Shown: piece after piece, positions 6,530 to 64,000 of the stretch
Layout of the letters: the number at the start of each line of letters is the position of its first letter
Numbering within the stretch: position 1 is the first letter of the stretch
Source of the DNA: an uncultured Clostridiaceae bacterium
Lineage (GTDB): Bacteria > Bacillota > Clostridia > TANB77 > CAG-508
DNA length: 64,000 nt
NCBI GenBank assembly: GCA_947642455.1
Contig: CANRSN010000008.1
Coordinates: forward strand, 15,389-79,388
Direction of reading: 5' to 3'
Position numbers and translations under genes: made by a program
Notes under the pieces: generated by a model
Told to the model about the DNA's origin: nothing
The model's input: only the letters and a program-made list of their open reading frames with translations
Databases searched by the model: none

Positions 6530-7527
6530 ATGAGTAATGAAATTGAAAATAATATGAGTTTATTTAATGTAGAAAATATACAAGATAATAATCAATATAA
6601 TTTCAAATATATAGATTTATTTGCAGGAATTGGAGGTATTAGAACTCCATTTCAAAATTTAGGTGGAAAATGTGTTTTTTCATCTGAAATAGATAAATAT
6701 GCTTCTCAAACATATGAAGCTAATTATGGAGAAAAGCCTAGTGGAGATATAACTAAAATATCAGCTGATACAATACCAAATTTTGATGTTTTGCTAGCAG
6801 GATTTCCTTGTCAAGCATTCTCTATAGCAGGAAAAAGAGAAGGATTTAATGACACAAGAGGAACAATGTTCTTTGAGGTTGAAAGAATATTAGAAGAAAA
6901 ACAACCAAAGTGTTTTCTTTTAGAAAATGTAAAAGGATTAACTAACCATGATAAAGGCAAAACATTTCAAACAATGCTAGATATTTTAGAAAACAAATTG
7001 AAATATAAAGTATATCATAAGGTGCTAAAAATTTTGGATTACCCCAAAACAGAGAAAGAATAATGATAGTAGGATTTAAAAATCATGATATAGATTTCCA
7101 TTTCCCAGATGAATCTAATATTCCAACAAAATTAGGAAATATATTAGAAAAAAATCCAGATGATAAATACACAATATCTGATAAAATTTGGGCAAGTCAT
7201 CAAATGAGAAAAGAACGAAACAGAGAAAAAGGAAATGGATTTGGATATTGCTTATTTAATGAAAATTCTGAATATACTAGCACAATATCAGCCAGATATT
7301 ATAAAGATGGCTCAGAGATTTTAATAGATCAATCTAATAAAGGTAAAAATCCAAGAAAATTGACGCCAAGAGAAGTGGCAAGATTACAAGGCTATCCAGA
7401 TTCTTTTAAAATTGTAGTTAGTGATACACAGGCATATAAGCAATTTGGAAACTCTGTACCAGTAAATATGATTGATGCTGTTGCAAAAAAAATGTATGAA
7501 GCACTAAAAGAAGGAGGAGAAATATAA
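6530..7527 (+). pseudogene. DNA (cytosine-5) methyltransferase split by a frameshift at the A5/T4 run 7027-7035
   Basis: ORF1 carries 'FAGIGG', 'PCQAFS' and 'ENVKGL'. The other frame across the junction reads 'AKNFGLPQNRERIMIVGF', and ORF2 carries 'QFGNSVPV'. Confidence 0.8.
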
Positions 7528-16946: not shown

Positions 16947-16993
16947 TTGAAACACAAAGACTGTTTGTTGCTGAAAAGATATCAAACATTTTT

Positions 16994-17157
16994 TATACAA
17001 TAAGAAAGTCATACTGACTTTTCTTATTGTATAAAAAGCTTCGCAAACATTGTGCACAAATTTAAAAAAAATTTGGCACAGAACAAATTTACGGAAAGCC
17101 AAAGAGAAGAGTTAAAGTTGTGCTAAATTAAAGGCTTTCCGATTTGTTCTATTTTTT
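16994..17157 (+). repeat. three-hairpin intergenic element H1
   Basis: Hairpin A tatacaataagaaagtca/tgacttttcttattgtata, linker aaaagcttcgc, hairpin B, and hairpin C gaacaaatttacggaaagcc/ggctttccgatttgttc followed by a T-run. Homologous to 18971-19131. Confidence 0.7.
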
Positions 17158-18864: not shown

Positions 18865-18970
18865 AAGAGGGAACCAACGAAGAAGATGAAACCGACACTG
18901 AAACTGAATAATAAGGCAAACGCAATGTGAAACTCTTGGAGAGGACTGGTATTACACTAGTTCTCTTTTT

Positions 18971-19131
18971 TATACAATAGGAAAGCATAGCAATTTGTTA
19001 TACTTTCCTATTATATAAAAGCTTCGCCAAACGTTCCATACAAAATTGCTAAAGCAATTTTGGCGGCGAACAAAGACGAGGCATAAAAAGTAATCTAAAA
19101 GGTAAATGTTTTAATCATGCCTCTTTTGTTC
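18971..19131 (+). repeat. three-hairpin intergenic element H2
   Basis: Same architecture as H1. The stems have different sequences but remain complementary (gaacaaagacgaggcat/atgcctcttttgttc). Confidence 0.7.
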
Positions 19132-22951: not shown

Positions 22952-24118
22952 ATGGAAGAAAATATTGAATTAAAAGTAGTATCTGATATAGATACAAAAG
23001 AAGTTGAAACAGCATTATTACAAACTAAAAAAGTAACAGAGGAGGTAGTAGAAAAATCATTAAATTATGATGCATTATTACCAGAAGAGAAGAAAGCAAT
23101 AGACGAATTCTTGGAAAAAGTAGATGTAAGTAATACTGCACAAGTTTTACAATATGGAGCAAGTGCACAAAATAATATATCTAAGTTTTCAGATAGTGTA
23201 CTTCAAGATGTGAAAACAAAAAGTACAGGAGAAGTTGGAAATTTATTATCAGATTTAGTTGTTCAAATAAAAGATTTTGACACAGATATAGAAGAAGGAG
23301 GAAAAACAGGATTATTTGCAATATTTAACTCTGCTAAAAAACAAGTAGAAAAGATAGTAGCAAAATATAATAAGGTAGAAAATAATATAGCTAAAATAGA
23401 AAAAGAGTTAGAAAGTCATAAAATTCAAATGATGAAGGATATAGCTATATTTGATACAATGTATGAAAAAAATTTACAATATTTTAAAGAATTGTCTTTA
23501 TACATAATTGCTGGAGAGAAAAAGCTAGAAGAATTAAGAAATGTTGTATTGCCAGAAATGCAGAAAAAAGCTACAGAAAGTAAAGATCAGATAGATGCAC
23601 AAGCAGTAAATGATATGGTAAATACAATAAATCGTTTTGAAAAGAAAATATATGATTTAAAAACTACAAGAATAATATCAATTCAAATGGCACCACAAAT
23701 TAGATTAATACAAAATAATGATAGTGAATTGGTTGAAAAAATACAAAGTTCTTTAATAAATACAATTCCACTTTGGAAAAATCAAATAGTAATAGCACTA
23801 GGTTTAACTAATGCAAAAAGTGCTTTGGGAGCTCAAAAACAAGTAACTGATATGACAAATGAAATGTTAAAGAAAAATAGTGAATTGTTAAAACAAGGAA
23901 CAATAGAAATTGCAGCAGAATCAGAAAAGGCTATCGTCGATGTTGCAACACTTCAAAAAACAAATCAAGATATTATAGAAACTTTAGATAAGGTAATCGA
24001 AATCCATGAAGAAGGTAGAACTCAAAGAAAAATAGCAGAGGCAGAATTAGAAAATATAGAAGGTCAATTAAAAGATAAACTTTTAGAAATAAAAATTGCT
24101 AGTGGAAAAGAGGAATAA
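22952..24118 (+). CDS. telA: TelA/YaaN-family toxic anion resistance protein
   Basis: The length, all-helical character and conserved N-terminal region 'VLQYGASAQNNISKFSD' fit the TelA family (from memory). Confidence 0.65.
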   Translation: MEENIELKVVSDIDTKEVETALLQTKKVTEEVVEKSLNYDALLPEEKKAIDEFLEKVDVSNTAQVLQYGASAQNNISKFSDSVLQDVKTKSTGEVGNLLSDLVVQIKDFDTDIEEGGKTGLFAIFNSAKKQVEKIVAKYNKVENNIAKIEKELESHKIQMMKDIAIFDTMYEKNLQYFKELSLYIIAGEKKLEELRNVVLPEMQKKATESKDQIDAQAVNDMVNTINRFEKKIYDLKTTRIISIQMAPQIRLIQNNDSELVEKIQSSLINTIPLWKNQIVIALGLTNAKSALGAQKQVTDMTNEMLKKNSELLKQGTIEIAAESEKAIVDVATLQKTNQDIIETLDKVIEIHEEGRTQRKIAEAELENIEGQLKDKLLEIKIASGKEE

Positions 24119-24258
24119 TGTTTCGTAGTAGTTACAATATTTTATTAAAAAATTACATAAAGTATTGCAAATTTATGTCAAGTATGCTAAAATATAGCGT
24201 AGATGGTAAGAACCATAATGTAAATAAGTATAAAAAACACATTTTTAAGGAGGACAAT

Positions 24259-25713
24259 ATGAAAGTGAAGCGGTTATTTTTAAATCTTTTAGTATCAACT
24301 TTTATAGCAATTGGTGGTATTACAGCAAATGCAACAGAAAACGAGCGGGCAGAATTGCCATATGTAGTGGAAGAAGGCAGTGTATATTTTGATAGCTGTG
24401 AGAATTTTGGCAGTGGGGCAAGTAGAGTAGTAAACAAGGAAAATGAGTATGTCACTGTTCCCTGTTATGCAGGTATTAATGGCTATGCTTATGTAGATGC
24501 TAATGGTCATACTATGGAATATAAGTATGACGAAGCCACAAATAATATTGAAATTCCCGAAGCGCCACAAGGTGCAGTAATGTTATTTAAACATTTTAGG
24601 AGCGAGAATTACAGAAATGGCTGGGTTGCAGCAGATAAGGTGAAAGAAAGAGAAGAAAATGGCATTTCAGAAATTCCTGAAGCAGAAGTAGAAACAGAGA
24701 ATGAAGTAGAGCTTCAGCCAGATGTGTTATTGGATGAAGAAACACAGAAAATGGAATTTACAGAATATTCTAATGAAACTGTACCAGAGTTAGAAACACA
24801 GCAGGAACCAAAAGTTGCAGTAGTTGTGCAACCTATTATACCAACAGTAAAAGTTATTGATGCAACATCTGAGGGAAAAGAAAAAAGGCAAAGGCAATAT
24901 GATATTGCAAAGGCAAAAGCTCAGGAGCTTGAAGGAGAAACCGAAGCTAACAATGAAAATCAGGAGACTTCAAATGAGGTTGAAACAATATCAGGAGAGG
25001 AGACTAAATCTGCAGTAAGGGTAATAGATGCAACATCTGAAGGAAAGGAAAGACGTCGCAAAGAAGCACAGAGCGAAATGGAACAGGAGACTTCAAATGA
25101 GGTTGAAACAATATCAGGAGAGGAGACTAAATCTGCAGTAAGGGTAATAGATGCAACATCTGAAGGAAAGGAAAGACGTCGCAAAGAAACACAGAGCGAA
25201 ATGGTAGCAAAGGTAGCACGTGAAGAGAAAGAAGATATAATATCAAATACTTCACAAACTATAGTGGATAACATATTAGAAAATATTGACATAAAGAATG
25301 AGTTAGAACCTCAAGTAGCAACCAATAGTGAAATTAGCGAAGAAACAACTGAAGGAGGAAGTCAACCACCAGCAAACAATGAAAATATTGAGGTAGCAAT
25401 AGAAGGAGGAAGTCAACCGCCAGCAGACAATGAAAATGTTGAGGTAGCAATAGAAGGAGGAAGTCAACCGCCAACTGATAATGAAAATGTTGAAGGAGTA
25501 ACTGAAGTAAACAACGAAGTTGTAACAAGTGTGAGCGAAACAGGAAATAGCCAAGTGGCTAAACTTATAAATGTAACAATAAACAACAGCGATGGTACTG
25601 TTAATCAAATACAAGTAGCAGTAAATATTCCAAATGAGTTTGTCAGTGAAGAGGAATTAAATCAATTAATTGATATGCTAGATTTAGCGAATATCAATAT
25701 TTATCAAAAATAG
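24259..25713 (+). CDS. secreted acidic tandem-repeat protein
   Basis: RBS aaggagg. Signal peptide 'MKVKRLFLNLLVSTFIAIGGITANA'. Contains 41-aa x2 and 17-aa x3 repeats. Confidence 0.7.
   Translation: MKVKRLFLNLLVSTFIAIGGITANATENERAELPYVVEEGSVYFDSCENFGSGASRVVNKENEYVTVPCYAGINGYAYVDANGHTMEYKYDEATNNIEIPEAPQGAVMLFKHFRSENYRNGWVAADKVKEREENGISEIPEAEVETENEVELQPDVLLDEETQKMEFTEYSNETVPELETQQEPKVAVVVQPIIPTVKVIDATSEGKEKRQRQYDIAKAKAQELEGETEANNENQETSNEVETISGEETKSAVRVIDATSEGKERRRKEAQSEMEQETSNEVETISGEETKSAVRVIDATSEGKERRRKETQSEMVAKVAREEKEDIISNTSQTIVDNILENIDIKNELEPQVATNSEISEETTEGGSQPPANNENIEVAIEGGSQPPADNENVEVAIEGGSQPPTDNENVEGVTEVNNEVVTSVSETGNSQVAKLINVTINNSDGTVNQIQVAVNIPNEFVSEEELNQLIDMLDLANINIYQK
24961..25206 (+). 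repeat. 123-bp near-identical tandem repeat x2 inside a CDS
   Basis: 'caggagacttcaaatgaggttgaaac...' restarts at 25084. A diverged partial copy lies around 24852. Confidence 0.9.
25351..25503 (+). repeat. 51-bp tandem repeat x3 inside a CDS
   Basis: 'gaaggaggaagtcaacc(a/g)cc...' begins at 25351, 25402 and 25453. Confidence 0.9.
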
Positions 25714-25821: not shown

Positions 25822-26683
25822 ATGATAAAATTTACAAAAATGGAAGGGCTAGGTAATGACTATGTTTATATTGATTGCTATTCAAAAGAGCAACAAATAA
25901 AAAACATGTCTAACCTAGCTCAAATTATTAGTAACAGGCATTATGGAGTTGGTTCAGATGGATTAATTCTAATTTGCAAAAGTAAAGTTGCAGATTTTAA
26001 AATGAGAATGTTCAACAATGATGGAAGTGAAGCAGAAATGTGTGGAAATGGGATCAGGTGTGTTCGGGAAATTTGTATATGACAAAAATCTTACACAAAA
26101 AGAAGAAATAACTGTAGAAACATTAGCAGGAATAAAAAAATTAAAACTAAACATAGAAAATAAAAAAGTTAAAACAGTTAAAGTTGATATGGGAGAGCCT
26201 ATTTTAGAACCAGAGAAAATACCAGTAATTACAGAAAAATGTGATATACCTGTTAAAGATCTAGATTTACAGATAATAGATAAAAAATTTAGTTTTACTT
26301 GCATATCTATGGGAAACCCACATGCAGTTACTTTTATAGATAATATAAAAGAATTCGAATTAGAGAAATATGGAAGTATAGTAGAAACGGATAAGCATTT
26401 TCCTAAAAAAGTAAATGTTGAATTTATAAAATTAGTAAATGAAACATATATGCAAATGAGAGTATGGGAAAGAGGTTCAGGAGAAACTTTAGCTTGTGGA
26501 ACAGGTGCATGTGCCACAGTTGTAGCAGCAATATTAAATGGTTATGCAAGTAAAAATACATCCATAACAGTTGAATTATTAGGAGGAAAACTAGAAATAG
26601 AGTGGAATGAGACTGATAATCATATATATATGACAGGTCCAGCAAATATAGTATTTGAGGGAAATATGGAAATAGAATACTAA
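25822..26683 (+). pseudogene. dapF: diaminopimelate epimerase with a 1-nt frame break near 26060-26070
   Basis: '[10 protein letters not shown]' and 'MCGNGIRC' are in one frame. '[10 protein letters not shown]...NPHAV...ACGTGACA' is in the +1 frame. Removing one base restores 'CGNGIRC(F/V)GKFVYD'. Confidence 0.85.
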
Positions 26684-28031: not shown

Positions 28032-28046
28032 TCAGAAACTATCAGC

Positions 28047-28263
28047 AAAAAAGAGTACAATTTGTTACATTTCACAGATATAATATTCACTTAAGTACTA
28101 TAATATTTATTTTGACAAAGTTTTGCTTAAGGGAAGCTCCTAAAGTGGACACGACCCAGAGCTACCTACGAAGCCAGTAAGAAACTTTGTCAAAATAAAT
28201 ATTATAGTACTTATATGATTCTGATTCTAATCTGTGAAATGTAACAAAATGTACTCTTTTTTT
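28047..28263 (-). repeat. nested-palindrome element P1 (core on the minus strand)
   Basis: Outer arms 28047-28079 / 28230-28263, inner arms 28090-28124 / 28183-28213. They enclose the core 'gggaagctcctaaagtggacacgacccagagctacctacgaagccagtaag'. Confidence 0.85.
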
Positions 28264-28393
28264 ACCGAGAAACTATTGATTTTTAACTAAAAATGTGATA
28301 ACATATATACGTTAAATTACCTTATACTTAGTTTTAGGAGAACACACCACTAAAACTCAGTTTAGGGCATATAAAGAAGTAGGAGGTGTAAAA

Positions 28394-35169: not shown

Positions 35170-35232
35170 TTTTTAGAATAAATATTATATTGCCTAAAAT
35201 ATATAATTTTACAAACTGTGAATTGTAAAGAA
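35170..35232. repeat. fragment of the P-element arm
   Basis: 'ataaatattatattgcctaaaatatataattttacaaactgtgaattgt' matches the reverse complement of the P4 left arm (63789-63834). Confidence 0.55.
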
Positions 35233-47248: not shown

Positions 47249-47263
47249 TTTAATAACAATATT

Positions 47264-47486
47264 CAGAAAAAAAGAGTACAATTTGTTATAATTCATAGTT
47301 TGAAATTATAAACCTATAGGCAATATAATATTTATTTTAACGAAGTTTTTTACTGGCTTCGCCAATCGCTCTGGGTCACTTCTACTGTGGGAGCTTCCCT
47401 GCGCAAAACTTCGTTAAAATAAATATTATATTGCTTAAATAGATATTAATATCTTGAATTATAACAAATTGTACTCTTTTTTTCTG
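47264..47486 (+). repeat. nested-palindrome element P2 (core on the plus strand)
   Basis: Outer arms cagaaaaaaagagtacaatttgttataattca / tgaattataacaaattgtactctttttttctg, inner arms 47320-47348 / 47406-47434, core 47349-47405. Confidence 0.85.
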
Positions 47487-47574
47487 AATAATATAAGTCA
47501 TATAAAAGAGAATATTATTCCAATAAAATGGAATAATATTCTTTATATATGTTTGTAAAAGAAGGTGTTAAAAC

Positions 47575-48644: not shown

Positions 48645-49001
48645 ATGGATATACACAATATGAAAAATATGGTAGTATTAAAAAATTTACCATCAAATAT
48701 AATAGAAGAGGCTTTTGTTGTTTTAAAAAATAATGTGAAAATACATAAAACAGAAACAGTAGATAAAATAAAAGGAAAACAGAAAATGGAACCAAAGGAA
48801 ACGAAATTAAATAATAATGAATATGTAATAAAAGAGGCAGAACTTATAATATCAGAATATATGAATAAAATTAATAAAAAAGAATTTGATAATATATGTA
48901 ATAATAAGAAGTTGGAAATGAAGTGTAAGAGACTAAAGGCTATTTCTTGCTTTTTAGGAGCATTTTCAATACTTGCTAGTATATGTATTTTATTTGGATA
49001 G
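48645..49001 (+). CDS. hypothetical protein with a C-terminal TM helix
   Basis: Intact ORF, followed by a strong terminator. Confidence 0.5.
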   Translation: MDIHNMKNMVVLKNLPSNIIEEAFVVLKNNVKIHKTETVDKIKGKQKMEPKETKLNNNEYVIKEAELIISEYMNKINKKEFDNICNNKKLEMKCKRLKAISCFLGAFSILASICILFG

Positions 49002-49077: not shown

Positions 49078-49222
49078 AGCAAAAAAGAATACAATTTGTT
49101 TCATTTCATAGATTAAAATCAGAATTATATAAGTACTATAATAACGTTTTTTACTGGCTTCGTGGGTAGCTCTGAGTCATGCCTACTATAGAAGCCATAA
49201 AAGTTTTGTAATAATAATATGA
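49078..49222 (+). repeat. nested-palindrome element P3 (right half deleted)
   Basis: The left outer arm and core 'ttactggcttcgtgggtagctctgagtcatgcctactatagaagcc' are present. The right arms are missing. Confidence 0.75.
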
Positions 49223-49269
49223 TTTTCGAATATACATGTGATAAAGAGGTGTTAATATTGGAAAAAACA

Positions 49270-50328
49270 ATGAGCTCGGAAGAAAGAATAAGACGAGCTG
49301 AGGAGATATACAACAGAAGGAGAGAAAGATATAATGGAAATATAAGAGTGTCAAGTTCTTCAGTAAACGTCAACTCAAAACCAGAGTATGCAATATTTAA
49401 AAAAGTAATATTACAAGTTTTAATATGTCTATTAATATATTTAATTTTTTACTTAATAAAAAATTCAAATTACATATTTTCAGCAGATGTATTAGAAAAA
49501 ACAAAAGAATTTTTATCATATGACATAAATTTTCAAAATGTATATGAAGTCGTAAGTACATATTATAACAATGCAATTAAATGGCTAGAAGAATTTAATA
49601 AAAATCAAGAGAATAATGAGTTGGTAGAAAATCAACTGGAAAATAATCAACAAGAAAATAGCCAAGCGGAAAATAGTCAGCAAGGAAAAGATGAAGAACA
49701 AAAAAATAGTGAGGGCAAGCAGGGAGAACAAAATGGGGAACAAGAAAAAGATGAAAAAACGGAAAACGAAAACTTACAAGAAGAAAGTGGTAATACAGCT
49801 GGTTCAGAAGATGGAGAACAAACGGTACAAACCTCTCAATTAGTGGGAATTGGAGGAGGAGAAGACGAAAACCATCAGGATGAAGTACCAGCTCCACAAG
49901 TACAATTATCACAAATGGAAATAGATGCAAATGAAATAAAACAAAATTATAGTTTTGCAATTCCATTAAAAGGTACAATAAGTTCAAGATATGGACCAAG
50001 GCAAGCAACAGAAATTGTTTCTGGTAATCACAAAGGAATTGATATAGCAGTAAATGAAGGAACTGTATTTTGTGCAGCAATGGAAGGAACTGTAACAGAG
50101 GTGTCTGGAGAAGGAAGCTATGGCAACCATATATATATTCAAAATGGTGATGTAGTAACATTATATGCACACTGTAAAAAGATATATTTACAAAAGGGGC
50201 AAAAAGTGACTCAAGGAATGCAAATTGGCGAAGTAGGTAGTACAGGAAATGTTACAGGTCCTCATTTGCATTTTGAAATAAGAAAGGCTGGTAGAGTAGT
50301 AAATCCAGAGTATGTACTGGCTTTTTAA
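49270..50328 (+). CDS. M23 family metallopeptidase with an N-terminal TM helix and a Q/E/N-rich linker
   Basis: 'NHKGIDIA' and 'GNVTGPHLHFEI'. The start is uncertain (TTG 49258 or ATG 49270). Confidence 0.8.
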   Translation: MSSEERIRRAEEIYNRRRERYNGNIRVSSSSVNVNSKPEYAIFKKVILQVLICLLIYLIFYLIKNSNYIFSADVLEKTKEFLSYDINFQNVYEVVSTYYNNAIKWLEEFNKNQENNELVENQLENNQQENSQAENSQQGKDEEQKNSEGKQGEQNGEQEKDEKTENENLQEESGNTAGSEDGEQTVQTSQLVGIGGGEDENHQDEVPAPQVQLSQMEIDANEIKQNYSFAIPLKGTISSRYGPRQATEIVSGNHKGIDIAVNEGTVFCAAMEGTVTEVSGEGSYGNHIYIQNGDVVTLYAHCKKIYLQKGQKVTQGMQIGEVGSTGNVTGPHLHFEIRKAGRVVNPEYVLAF

Positions 50329-51469: not shown

Positions 51470-51533
51470 AAAGTTGATATAATATTAAATTCTAATTTTT
51501 GTGCCAGTTACTGACATAAAAATTAGAATTTTT

Positions 51534-51590
51534 TATATAATAGGAAAGCATAACAATTTGTTATACTTTCCTATTATATAAAAGCTTTGC
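51534..51590 (+). repeat. H-element hairpin A plus linker only (H3)
   Basis: 'tatataataggaaagcataacaatttgttatactttcctattatataaaagctttgc' is nearly identical to 18971-19027. Confidence 0.75.
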
Positions 51591-57750: not shown

Positions 57751-59142
57751 TTAGAATTCGCAGTTTTTTGGTGTTCTAGGGAAAGGAATAACATCACGTA
57801 TATTTTGCATACCTGTTAAATACATCATCATTCTTTCAAAACCTAAACCAAAACCAGAATGTTTGATGCTTCCAAAGCGACGTAAATCTAAATACCACCA
57901 GTAATCTTCTTCATTTAAGCCAAGCTCTTTCATACGTGTTTTTAATTTTTCTAGATCTTCTTCTCTTTGGCTACCTCCAATTAATTCTCCAATACCAGGC
58001 ACTAATAGGTCAGTAGCAGCTACAGTTTTACCATCTGGATTTTGTTTCATATAAAATGCCTTTATTTCTTTTGGATAGTCTGTAACAAATACAGGTTTTC
58101 CAAAAACAACTTCACTTAAATATCTTTCATGTTCTGTTTGAATATCTGCTCCCCAAAATACTTTATATTCGAAATTATCATTATTTTTTTCTAATTCTTT
58201 TATAGCATCTGTATATGTAATTCTACCAAACTCAGAATTTACTACATGATTTAATCTTTCTAATAGACCAGGGGCAATAAACTTATCAAAGAATTCCATT
58301 TCTTCTGGTACATTTTCTAATACATAAGAAATGATGTATTTTATCATATCTTCTGCTAAGTCCATGTCATCATTTAAGTCAGCAAAACACATTTCAGGTT
58401 CGATCATCCAAAATTCGGCAGCATGTTTTACAGTATTTGAATTTTCTGCTCTAAAAGTTGGACCAAATGTATATACATTTCTGAATGCGAATGCGTAATT
58501 TTCGACATCTAGTTGTCCACTTACAGTAAGATGTGCATTTTTTCCAAAAAAGTCTTTGCTAAAGTCAACTGCACCATCTTCAGTTTTAGGAAGTTCATTA
58601 AAGTCTAAAGAAGAAACACTAAACATTTCTCCAGCACCTTCTGCATCGCTACTTGTAATTATTGGTGTATGAACATAAACAAAACCTCTTTCATTGAAAA
58701 ATTTGTGTATTGCAAATGATAATACACTACGTACTCTAAATACTGCATTAAATGTATTTGTACGTGGACGTAAATGTGATATTGTTCGTAAATATTCAAA
58801 TGAGTGTCTCTTTTTTTGAAGAGGATAGTCACTATCTGAAATGTTACATATTTCAATTTTACTAGCTTTTATTTCAAATGGTTGTTTTGCATTTTCTGTT
58901 TTTACAACTGTTCCTGTAACTATTATAGATGAACTTATTGAAAGTTTGCAAATTTGCTCAAAGTTTTCCAATTTTTCATCAAATACTATTTGTACATTTG
59001 TGTAAAATGAACCATCATTTAATTCTATAAAACCAAATGATTTTGAGTCTCTTACTGTTTTTACCCAGCCAGATACTTGCACTTGTGTACCTATATACTT
59101 TTCTTCATTTCGATATAAATTTTTTACTAATGTATTTTCCAT
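57751..59142 (-). CDS. asnS: asparagine--tRNA ligase
   Basis: Class II aaRS motifs '[19 protein letters not shown]' and '[12 protein letters not shown]'. Confidence 0.9.
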
Positions 59143-59251
59143 AGTTTACCTCCGTCTTTTATTATTAAATATAAGATTTAATAATGTTTTTATTTTTTAT
59201 ATAGTATAACATATTTATCATTTTTTGCAATATAATTTGTTAAATAAAAAC

Positions 59252-63769: not shown

Positions 63770-64000
63770 ATTCCAAACAAAATTACTAAAACAATTCACA
63801 GCTTAATTTATATTTAGGCAATATGATATTTATTGATGTGTAACCATTCAGATGTCTTAAACTATTTGCTGTGTTATTAATATTTATTTTTAGAAGTTTC
63901 TTACTGGCTTCGTGGGTAGCTCTGGGTCGTGTCCACTCTAGAAGCTTCCCTGCACAAGATTTCTAAAAATAAATATTAATAAATTAGGCAGAATATAAAT
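63770..64000 (+). repeat. nested-palindrome element P4 (runs off the window end)
   Basis: Inner arms 63882-63900 / 63957-63984. Core 'ttactggcttcgtgggtagctctgggtcgtgtccactctagaagcttccctgcacaag'. Confidence 0.8.

Follow-up and report, generated by a model that had tools for sequence, protein, structure and literature searches.

A dispersed nested palindrome of ~225 bp, probably a lineage-restricted MITE, in one uncultured species of gut Clostridia

Results

Copies of the repeat

Downstream of fabI in the window (the whole stretch of 64,000 nucleotides that was analysed) lies P2, a complete copy of a palindromic repeat that spans 223 bp with CAG...CTG ends (47264-47486, plus strand) and was delimited by its core, terminal motif, folding and inverted repeats. 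It starts 15 nt past the fabI stop codon and upstream of fabI's own terminator-like hairpin, which is placed outside the element (47507-47544, plus strand). The left outer arm, terminal inverted repeat included (47264-47295, plus strand), is the perfect complement of the right one, which also includes the terminal repeat (47455-47486, minus strand), both being 32 bp long; the inner arms of 33 bp (47317-47349, plus strand, and 47405-47437, minus strand) form a second inverted repeat with 97% complementarity. Between the inner arms is a core of a variant type (47350-47401, plus strand), with CCAATC and ACTTCT in place of the blocks TRGGTA and RTGYCY of the other copies. The predicted folding energy of P2 is -96 kcal/mol (z-score -15) for the plus strand and -94 kcal/mol (z-score -17) for the minus strand. 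The left flank AACAATATT (47255-47263) and the right flank AATAATATA (47487-47495) match at 7/9 positions, for which the empirical p value in the window is ~0.01.

The core was searched for with the pattern TTACTGGCTTCG-N6-GCTCTGRGTC, which has exactly four matches in the window, at 28153-28180 (minus strand) and starting at 47350, 49151 and 63901; none appeared in 100 dinucleotide-preserving shuffles of the sequence, so that the chance expectation for the window is none. Four repeats had been proposed in an earlier note made from the sequence alone, and this number stands, as does their description as nested palindromes; a repeat finder listed no longer inverted repeats in the window than these nested ones. 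With nhmmer, neither a core profile nor one built on the whole element revealed further copies in the window; the sole additional match was weak and arm-like (35173-35229, minus strand, E = 0.09), a possible solitary arm fragment with the sequence AATAAATATTATATTGCCTAAA..., similar to a P2-type arm in its inner and linker portion.

Each core forms the loop of a nested hairpin of ~225 bp. A complete copy is built of five parts: an outer stem of ~32 bp, to which the terminal repeat and an A7/T7 run belong, linkers that are asymmetric, an inner stem (31-33 bp) and, in the loop, a core of ~52 nt; the palindrome makes up ~75% of the element as two nested stems. The terminal motif AAAAGAGTACAATTTGTTA is found at both ends of P1 and P2 and only at the left end of P3, and the terminal inverted repeats of P1 and P2 read CAG(A/C)AAAAAAGAGTACAATTTGTTA.

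P1 is a complete copy of 225 bp (28043-28267, minus strand), recognised by core and terminal-motif matches, inverted repeats and nhmmer. It is oriented opposite to P2, P3 and P4, scoring 236 bits on the minus strand vs 98 on the plus strand by nhmmer, which indicates that the whole element is inverted. This copy is located between dapL and rpsO, 11 nt past the dapL stop codon and upstream of rpsO and pnp; its outer arms are 33 bp long and its inner arms at least 31 bp, while the core, non-palindromic and relatively GC-rich, was placed at 28130-28180 (minus strand) by the core pattern and nhmmer. P1 is flanked by a 9-bp direct repeat, AGAAACTAT, a candidate target-site duplication whose left copy (28034-28042) and right copy (28268-28276) match at 9/9 positions, the empirical p value in the window being ~1e-4 when the flanks are aligned in a fixed register. 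DapL homologues and the identical RpsO protein were used to look for an empty P1 site, and led only to contigs of the same species, all of them carrying P1. Near this locus, several assemblies split dapF (diaminopimelate epimerase; window 25969-26683, corresponding to 9009-9870 of contig L057) into two ORFs, of 86 and 220 aa, that overlap, which suggests a frameshift or a pseudogene beside dapL.

P3 is a truncated or decayed copy (49078 to ~49222, plus strand), in which the left arm and the core (49151-49196) are intact, the latter without TTCCCTG, and the right arm is largely unrecognisable. It sits 76 nt past the stop codon of an ORF at 48645-49001, after that ORF's terminator. Position 49190 of the P3 core is polymorphic, being A in the window and G in contigs L014 and L077. 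Of note, the M23 peptidase gene downstream shares its ribosome-binding site (AAAGAGGTG) and start region with the decayed right arm (49200-49270); the translation signals of this gene may now come from what was once P3.

P4 is a full-length but divergent copy of ~227 bp (~63813 to ~64039, plus strand) which runs past the end of the window at 64000, and was completed from a contig of another assembly, L077, reached via the SpoU gene. Its core was located at 63901-63952 (plus strand) by the core pattern, and its inner arms (63874-63895 and 63961-63982) form a perfect inverted repeat; its outer arms are just 41-45% identical to those of P1 and P2, yet complementary to each other. A single-base strain polymorphism is present in the right arm at window position 63983 (17216 in L077), where the window has AATAAATTAGG and L077 has AATAACTTAGG. 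P4 lies 3' of a 67-aa ORF, and the claim that all copies follow genes thus holds at every site.

Distribution and the empty P2 site

The host belongs to the uncultured low-GC gut Clostridia, its nearest named FabI homologue (84% identity) being that of Candidatus Merdicola faecigallinarum. Contigs with identical genes were found in metagenome assemblies and in the MAGs GCA_948585425.1 and GCA_949742625.1. Every contig of this species either carries P1 and P2 or is broken inside them, and no insertion polymorphism within the species was seen among the strains sampled. P1 and P2 are identical or nearly so across these strains; since the strains are >99.9% identical over the region, this invariance is uninformative on selection. 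Contig breaks were considered as a sign of high copy number and dropped, as perfect palindromes alone can break assembly graphs at k = 31.

We also considered the retention of P2 and P3 in the ~98%-identical contig L078 (MAG GCA_949742625.1) as evidence of selection, and dropped it because the divergence of L078 is confined to 57768-59153. That tract, a gene for an asparaginyl/aspartyl-type tRNA synthetase, is ~17% divergent in L078 and its flanking 11 kb are >99.9% identical; beyond it, L078 has Hydrolase_2, HTH and small ORFs in place of Spo0A_C and deoB. The divergent tract could be the result of recombination or horizontal transfer, or a chimeric MAG contig.

Outside the species, exact scans for the core yielded 13 loci in a collection of genomes from 185,579 species, 15 in JGI metagenomes and 1 in IMG/VR, all of them chance matches in which the rest of the core is missing; the DNA around them is unrelated and for the most part GC-rich or coding. 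The loci of relatives with 88-94% FabI identity were devoid of both the core and the terminal repeat; the viral contigs had no terminal repeat and no second half of the core, and blastn of P2 against plasmid and phage collections returned only a chance match of 49 nt in AT-rich sequence. By these comparisons the family looks confined to one lineage.

The closest relative that was fetched, represented by contigs L065 and L066 (FabI 97% identical in protein, ~92% in DNA), lacks P2. Both flanks of the empty site align, the native fabI terminator included, and the gap between fabI and the next gene measures 95 nt in these contigs vs 327 nt in the window. P3 is absent as well from L065, which reaches past the next two genes. 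The absence of P2 and P3 in the closest relative implies at least two insertions younger than the split from the nearest sampled relative; at the P2 site itself, the alignment would be compatible with insertion in the host or with precise excision or deletion in the ~8%-divergent relative, which cannot be told apart. The empty-site alignment leans slightly towards no target duplication for P2 and is compatible with either case.

In another sample, contig L019 (1566-1574, window 47379-47387) carries a P2 core with four clustered substitutions (CACTTCTACTG to CATGTCCACTC), by which the second variable block of the core approaches the P1/P4 type at 5/6 positions. This mosaic suggests an exchange between copies, possibly by gene conversion, on a low-coverage contig that could be chimeric.

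Pairing of the arms

The arms were described in the earlier note as self-complementary within each copy and divergent between copies, and this was confirmed by counting changes of pairs. With P4 included, 20/67 arm pairs have changed on both sides, compared to 7.8 +/- 2.1 in shuffles (0/500 reached 20) and 1-4 in slid controls. Between the stems of P1 and P2, six pairs have changed on both sides, two on one side to G-U, and none is broken. P4 moreover displays one-nucleotide indels at mirrored positions of both inner arms (TATAAT vs TATTAAT; GACAAAG vs TAGAAG).

Conservation, folding and coding potential of the core

In all copies the core is non-palindromic and has a GC content far above that of the genome. 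Its conservation, as claimed beforehand, depends on the pair of copies compared: it is evident between P1 and P4, whose cores are 88% identical over a 58-column block (the 51-nt core proper differs at 3 positions, giving an identity of 88-94%) with outer arms at 41-45%, and it fails between P1 and P2, where the core is 74% identical vs 82-91% for the outer arms.

A helix between GGCUUC and GRAGCY can pair in 4/4 copies in the sense strand when G-U is allowed, with one-sided changes, all transitions, at 2/6 of its pairs. Among the four copies no pair of the core helices has changed on both sides and all measures were within those of shuffled controls, so the constraint at the RNA level that had been read from this helix was not upheld. 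A second candidate helix of 7 bp cannot be formed by P2. Core-only folds gave z-scores of +0.5, -1.3, 0.0 and -2.7, 2/4 copies being no better than shuffled sequence. The sense strand is more stable than the antisense strand on folding in 4/4 copies; nevertheless, the argument for a strand drawn from G-U pairs failed, since the tally of G-U-type vs A-C-type arm mismatches (15 vs 7) is not significant and the sense strand is rich in G and T.

Rfam 15 gave 0 matches over the whole window at gathering thresholds, in agreement with the earlier statement that no named RNA family could be recognised. In E-value mode, only matches far below threshold to generic long-hairpin models (e.g. plant microRNA precursors) appeared, inconsistent between copies.

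In the complete copies, P1 and P2, ORFs do not exceed 39 aa, and start codons are not conserved in any frame. One antisense frame runs uninterrupted through the core of 4/4 copies to a shared stop codon (...TQSY(P/L)RSQ*), at the conserved TTA of TTACTGG, and a sense frame reads as a hydrophobic (I)IFILTKF(L/F)TGF... stretch. Six-frame translations of all four copies had no match in a database of 5.8 billion proteins. The core was thus rejected as coding sequence, with a start codon that is not conserved, differences between the P1 and P4 cores that are non-synonymous, and no protein match.

We also noted a promoter-like motif, TT(G/A)(A/G)AA-N18-TATAAT, in the left arm directed towards the core in P1 (by eye), P2 and P3, and absent in P4; such motifs number 29 in the DNA of the window against 20.7 expected. 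An internal promoter in the left arm, restricted to P1-P3, was therefore rejected as indistinguishable from AT-rich background.

Other features of the window

A second dispersed family of palindromes is represented at 18966-19024 and 51529-51587 by near-perfect hairpins of ~55 bp that are ~97% identical to each other (TTTTATA(T/C)AATAGGAAAGCATA(A/G)CAA / TTGTTATACTTTCCTATTATATAAAA), with related palindromes at 16990-17037 and 51482-51536; these may be terminators or another small repeat family.

From position 1 to ~11600, and extending just upstream into contig L037 (7569-9353), the window holds an apparent integrated mobilisable element encoding a Dam-type methylase, two NS_2 endonucleases, a MobA/VirD2 relaxase, a YhcG nuclease and an exonuclease-BRCT protein, together with a C5 cytosine methylase that is split (6530-7063 and 7063-7527). 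A serine recombinase gene is located by this element, immediately beyond the window. The palindromic elements described above are all situated outside the region of the mobilisable element.

In the ORF at 24118-25713, a tandem repeat (25081-25402) varies in copy number between strains, the window being ~174 bp (58 aa) longer than contigs L057 and L067, with a protein of 531 vs 473 aa.

Discussion

By definition, a MITE has a core enclosed by terminal inverted repeats, target duplications, and a long stem-loop at the RNA level (PMC3184786). We consider it likely that the four repeats are copies of a non-autonomous palindromic transposable element of this sort, of ~225 bp, restricted to one lineage and forming a family not described before. 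The element is small and devoid of an ORF, has terminal inverted repeats, occurs in dispersed copies and shows a lineage-restricted presence; moreover, the inversion of P1 as a whole speaks for a MITE, because insertion is expected in either orientation. The target duplication is clean at P1 only (9/9), with 7/9 at P2 and right ends that were not scorable in P3 and P4. Between the two readings that had been offered at the outset, a MITE or a structured-RNA core, the former gained from the terminal inverted repeats, the 9-bp flanking repeat, the lack of an ORF, the dispersal and the empty site, and the latter lost ground with the lack of covariation. Against a MITE stand the lack of a cognate transposase gene in the window and the fetched flanks, the clean duplication at P1 alone, the P2 empty site, for which excision or deletion in the relative would serve equally well, the lack of insertion polymorphism among strains of the species, and P4, with terminal repeats that are nearly unrecognisable (41-45%) and a core 88-94% identical to the P1 core. 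The pattern of P4 is opposite to that of a plain MITE, in which the terminal repeats should be the conserved part, and for this reason it leaves room for a functional central module.

We propose that a transposase encoded elsewhere in the genome would recognise the terminal inverted repeats 5'-CAG(A/C)AAAAAAGAGTACAATTTGTTA; a putative parent element would be bounded by CAGAAAAAAAGAGTACAATTTGTTA. No transposase gene was found in the window or in the fetched flanks, nor any full-length IS with matching terminal repeats there. The element would have inserted into AT-rich intergenic DNA with a 9-bp target duplication, and its 52-nt core would be the non-palindromic centre of the founder element, passed down and probably exchanged between copies by gene conversion. 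Located just past stop codons, the copies are probably co-transcribed, giving a long hairpin between an A-run and a U-run, which could end transcription or serve RNase III as a double-stranded RNA target.

The arms are probably held complementary by template switching within the palindrome. Copying of one arm onto the other is proposed because matched indels are hard to obtain via independent mutation and selection: mismatches and indels in one arm would be copied to the other by template switching (quasipalindrome correction) or by hairpin repair. Template switching at quasipalindromes is described as homogenising the arms of repeats in two reports (PMC7202029, PMC8604942). In this process, DNA of one arm is copied from the other and several changes, indels included, are introduced at once, which fits both the compensated substitutions and the matched indels observed here. 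The process is known there for short quasipalindromes of E. coli and yeast, and by analogy it would be acting here on the 85-bp arms of a mobile element.

The features shared with bacterial MITEs (PMC3184786) are the small size, the lack of a transposase, terminal inverted repeats around a core, direct repeats, an intergenic location and a predicted stem-loop; in contrast, ~75% of our element is palindromic in two nested stems rather than in short terminal repeats, the P4 core has outlasted its terminal repeats, and no parent IS is known. Among known families, bcr1 of the Bacillus cereus group, of ~155 bp with 5-bp direct repeats and compensatory changes in its hairpin (PMC3184786), is similar in being a MITE-like repeat of Bacillota with a distribution that varies between relatives, direct repeats, and compensatory changes that keep the hairpin; by its description (PMC3184786), it is set apart by its length and its 5-bp repeats, the element here having ~225 bp and 9-bp repeats. 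The Correia elements of Neisseria, RUP, BOX and SPRITE of Streptococcus pneumoniae and ERIC of enterobacteria are likewise dispersed intergenic hairpin repeats co-transcribed with their neighbours, and differ by their descriptions in host and length. Some of these elements act as terminators or RNase III targets, and the target duplication of Correia and RUP is TA, compared to 9 bp here. The earlier note likewise did not recognise the core as REP, BOX, RUP or Correia. REP/REPIN elements, mobilised by RAYT transposases, have a short GC-rich REP hairpin as their conserved unit, no target duplication and a RAYT gene; they were discarded, the arms here being AT-rich and variable, P1 having a 9-bp repeat and the window containing no tyrosine (Y1) transposase gene. 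Palindromic elements derived from IS200/IS605 have only subterminal hairpins, without terminal inverted repeats or target duplication, and were ruled out by the terminal inverted repeats and flanking direct repeats found here. As judged from sequence and published descriptions, the element appears to match no family tested or named.

The pattern of P4 is the point at which another reading is best weighed, that of core and inner stem as a functional structured RNA, either a small RNA or a cis-acting 3'-UTR element, spread or captured by a mobile element; selection on such an RNA would account for the conserved core and the maintained hairpin. P4 keeps its core and perfect inner arms with outer arms down to 41-45%, the core is non-palindromic and GC-rich compared to the genome, the GGCUUC/GRAGCY pairing and the greater stability of the sense fold are seen in 4/4 copies, and the promoter-like motif of P1, P2 and P3 is aimed at the core. 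Nevertheless we regard this reading as unlikely: no pair of the core helices has changed on both sides and all of them behave as shuffled controls do, core-only z-scores are mostly unremarkable (+0.5, -1.3, 0.0, -2.7), the second candidate helix is destroyed in P2, the mismatch tally of 15 vs 7 is not significant, the promoter-like motif is missing from P4 and common in AT-rich DNA, Rfam has no match, P1 is antisense to the surrounding transcription, and P1 and P2 differ more in the core than in the arms. It is to the same degree doubtful that the primary entity is a selected RNA or single-stranded DNA module of core plus inner stem, carried by differing outer arms, for which a 3'-UTR-derived small RNA, a signal of RNA stability or processing, or a protein-binding site may be candidates. 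Such a module would explain why P4 retains core and perfect inner arms despite its changed terminal repeats, why pairing persists despite divergence, and the apparent exchange of cores in L019. We would speak of a new class of RNA or mobile element only if the core turned out to be selected in its own right.

Slightly less probable still is that the elements are host-recruited terminators or hairpins at mRNA ends, in a role like that of REP or SPRITE, kept for that function and no longer mobile. The position of all copies directly 3' of genes would agree with it, as would the folding of the complete copies at -96 to -99.5 kcal/mol with A7 and T7 runs at their sides, like a bidirectional terminator, the (near) identity of P1 and P2 in the sampled strains and the maintenance of hairpin pairing through sequence divergence; however, fabI has a conserved terminator of its own 3' of P2, found also in the relative without P2, P3 sits behind an existing terminator and has lost one arm, the invariance comes from strains that are >99.9% identical over the region and is thus silent on selection, and the 9-bp flanking repeats and terminal inverted repeats point to an origin by transposition. 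That the core encodes a small peptide, whether the antisense ...TQSY(P/L)RSQ* or the hydrophobic one of the sense frame, we find barely credible: the antisense frame is open in 4/4 copies with a common stop codon and the sense frame is readable, but neither frame has a conserved start codon, 3/3 changes that set the P1 core apart from that of P4 are non-synonymous when read in the antisense frame, and 0 matches in any frame were found among 5.8 billion proteins.

If the repeats are indeed a MITE family, they would provide a strain or lineage marker in poorly known uncultured gut Clostridia and would explain contig breaks in short-read assemblies of the host. They would also be an example of arm-to-arm homogenisation, matched indels included, in a bacterial palindromic element, and may, by placing long hairpins in the 3' UTRs of core genes (e.g. 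dapL and fabI), affect termination or the decay of mRNA.
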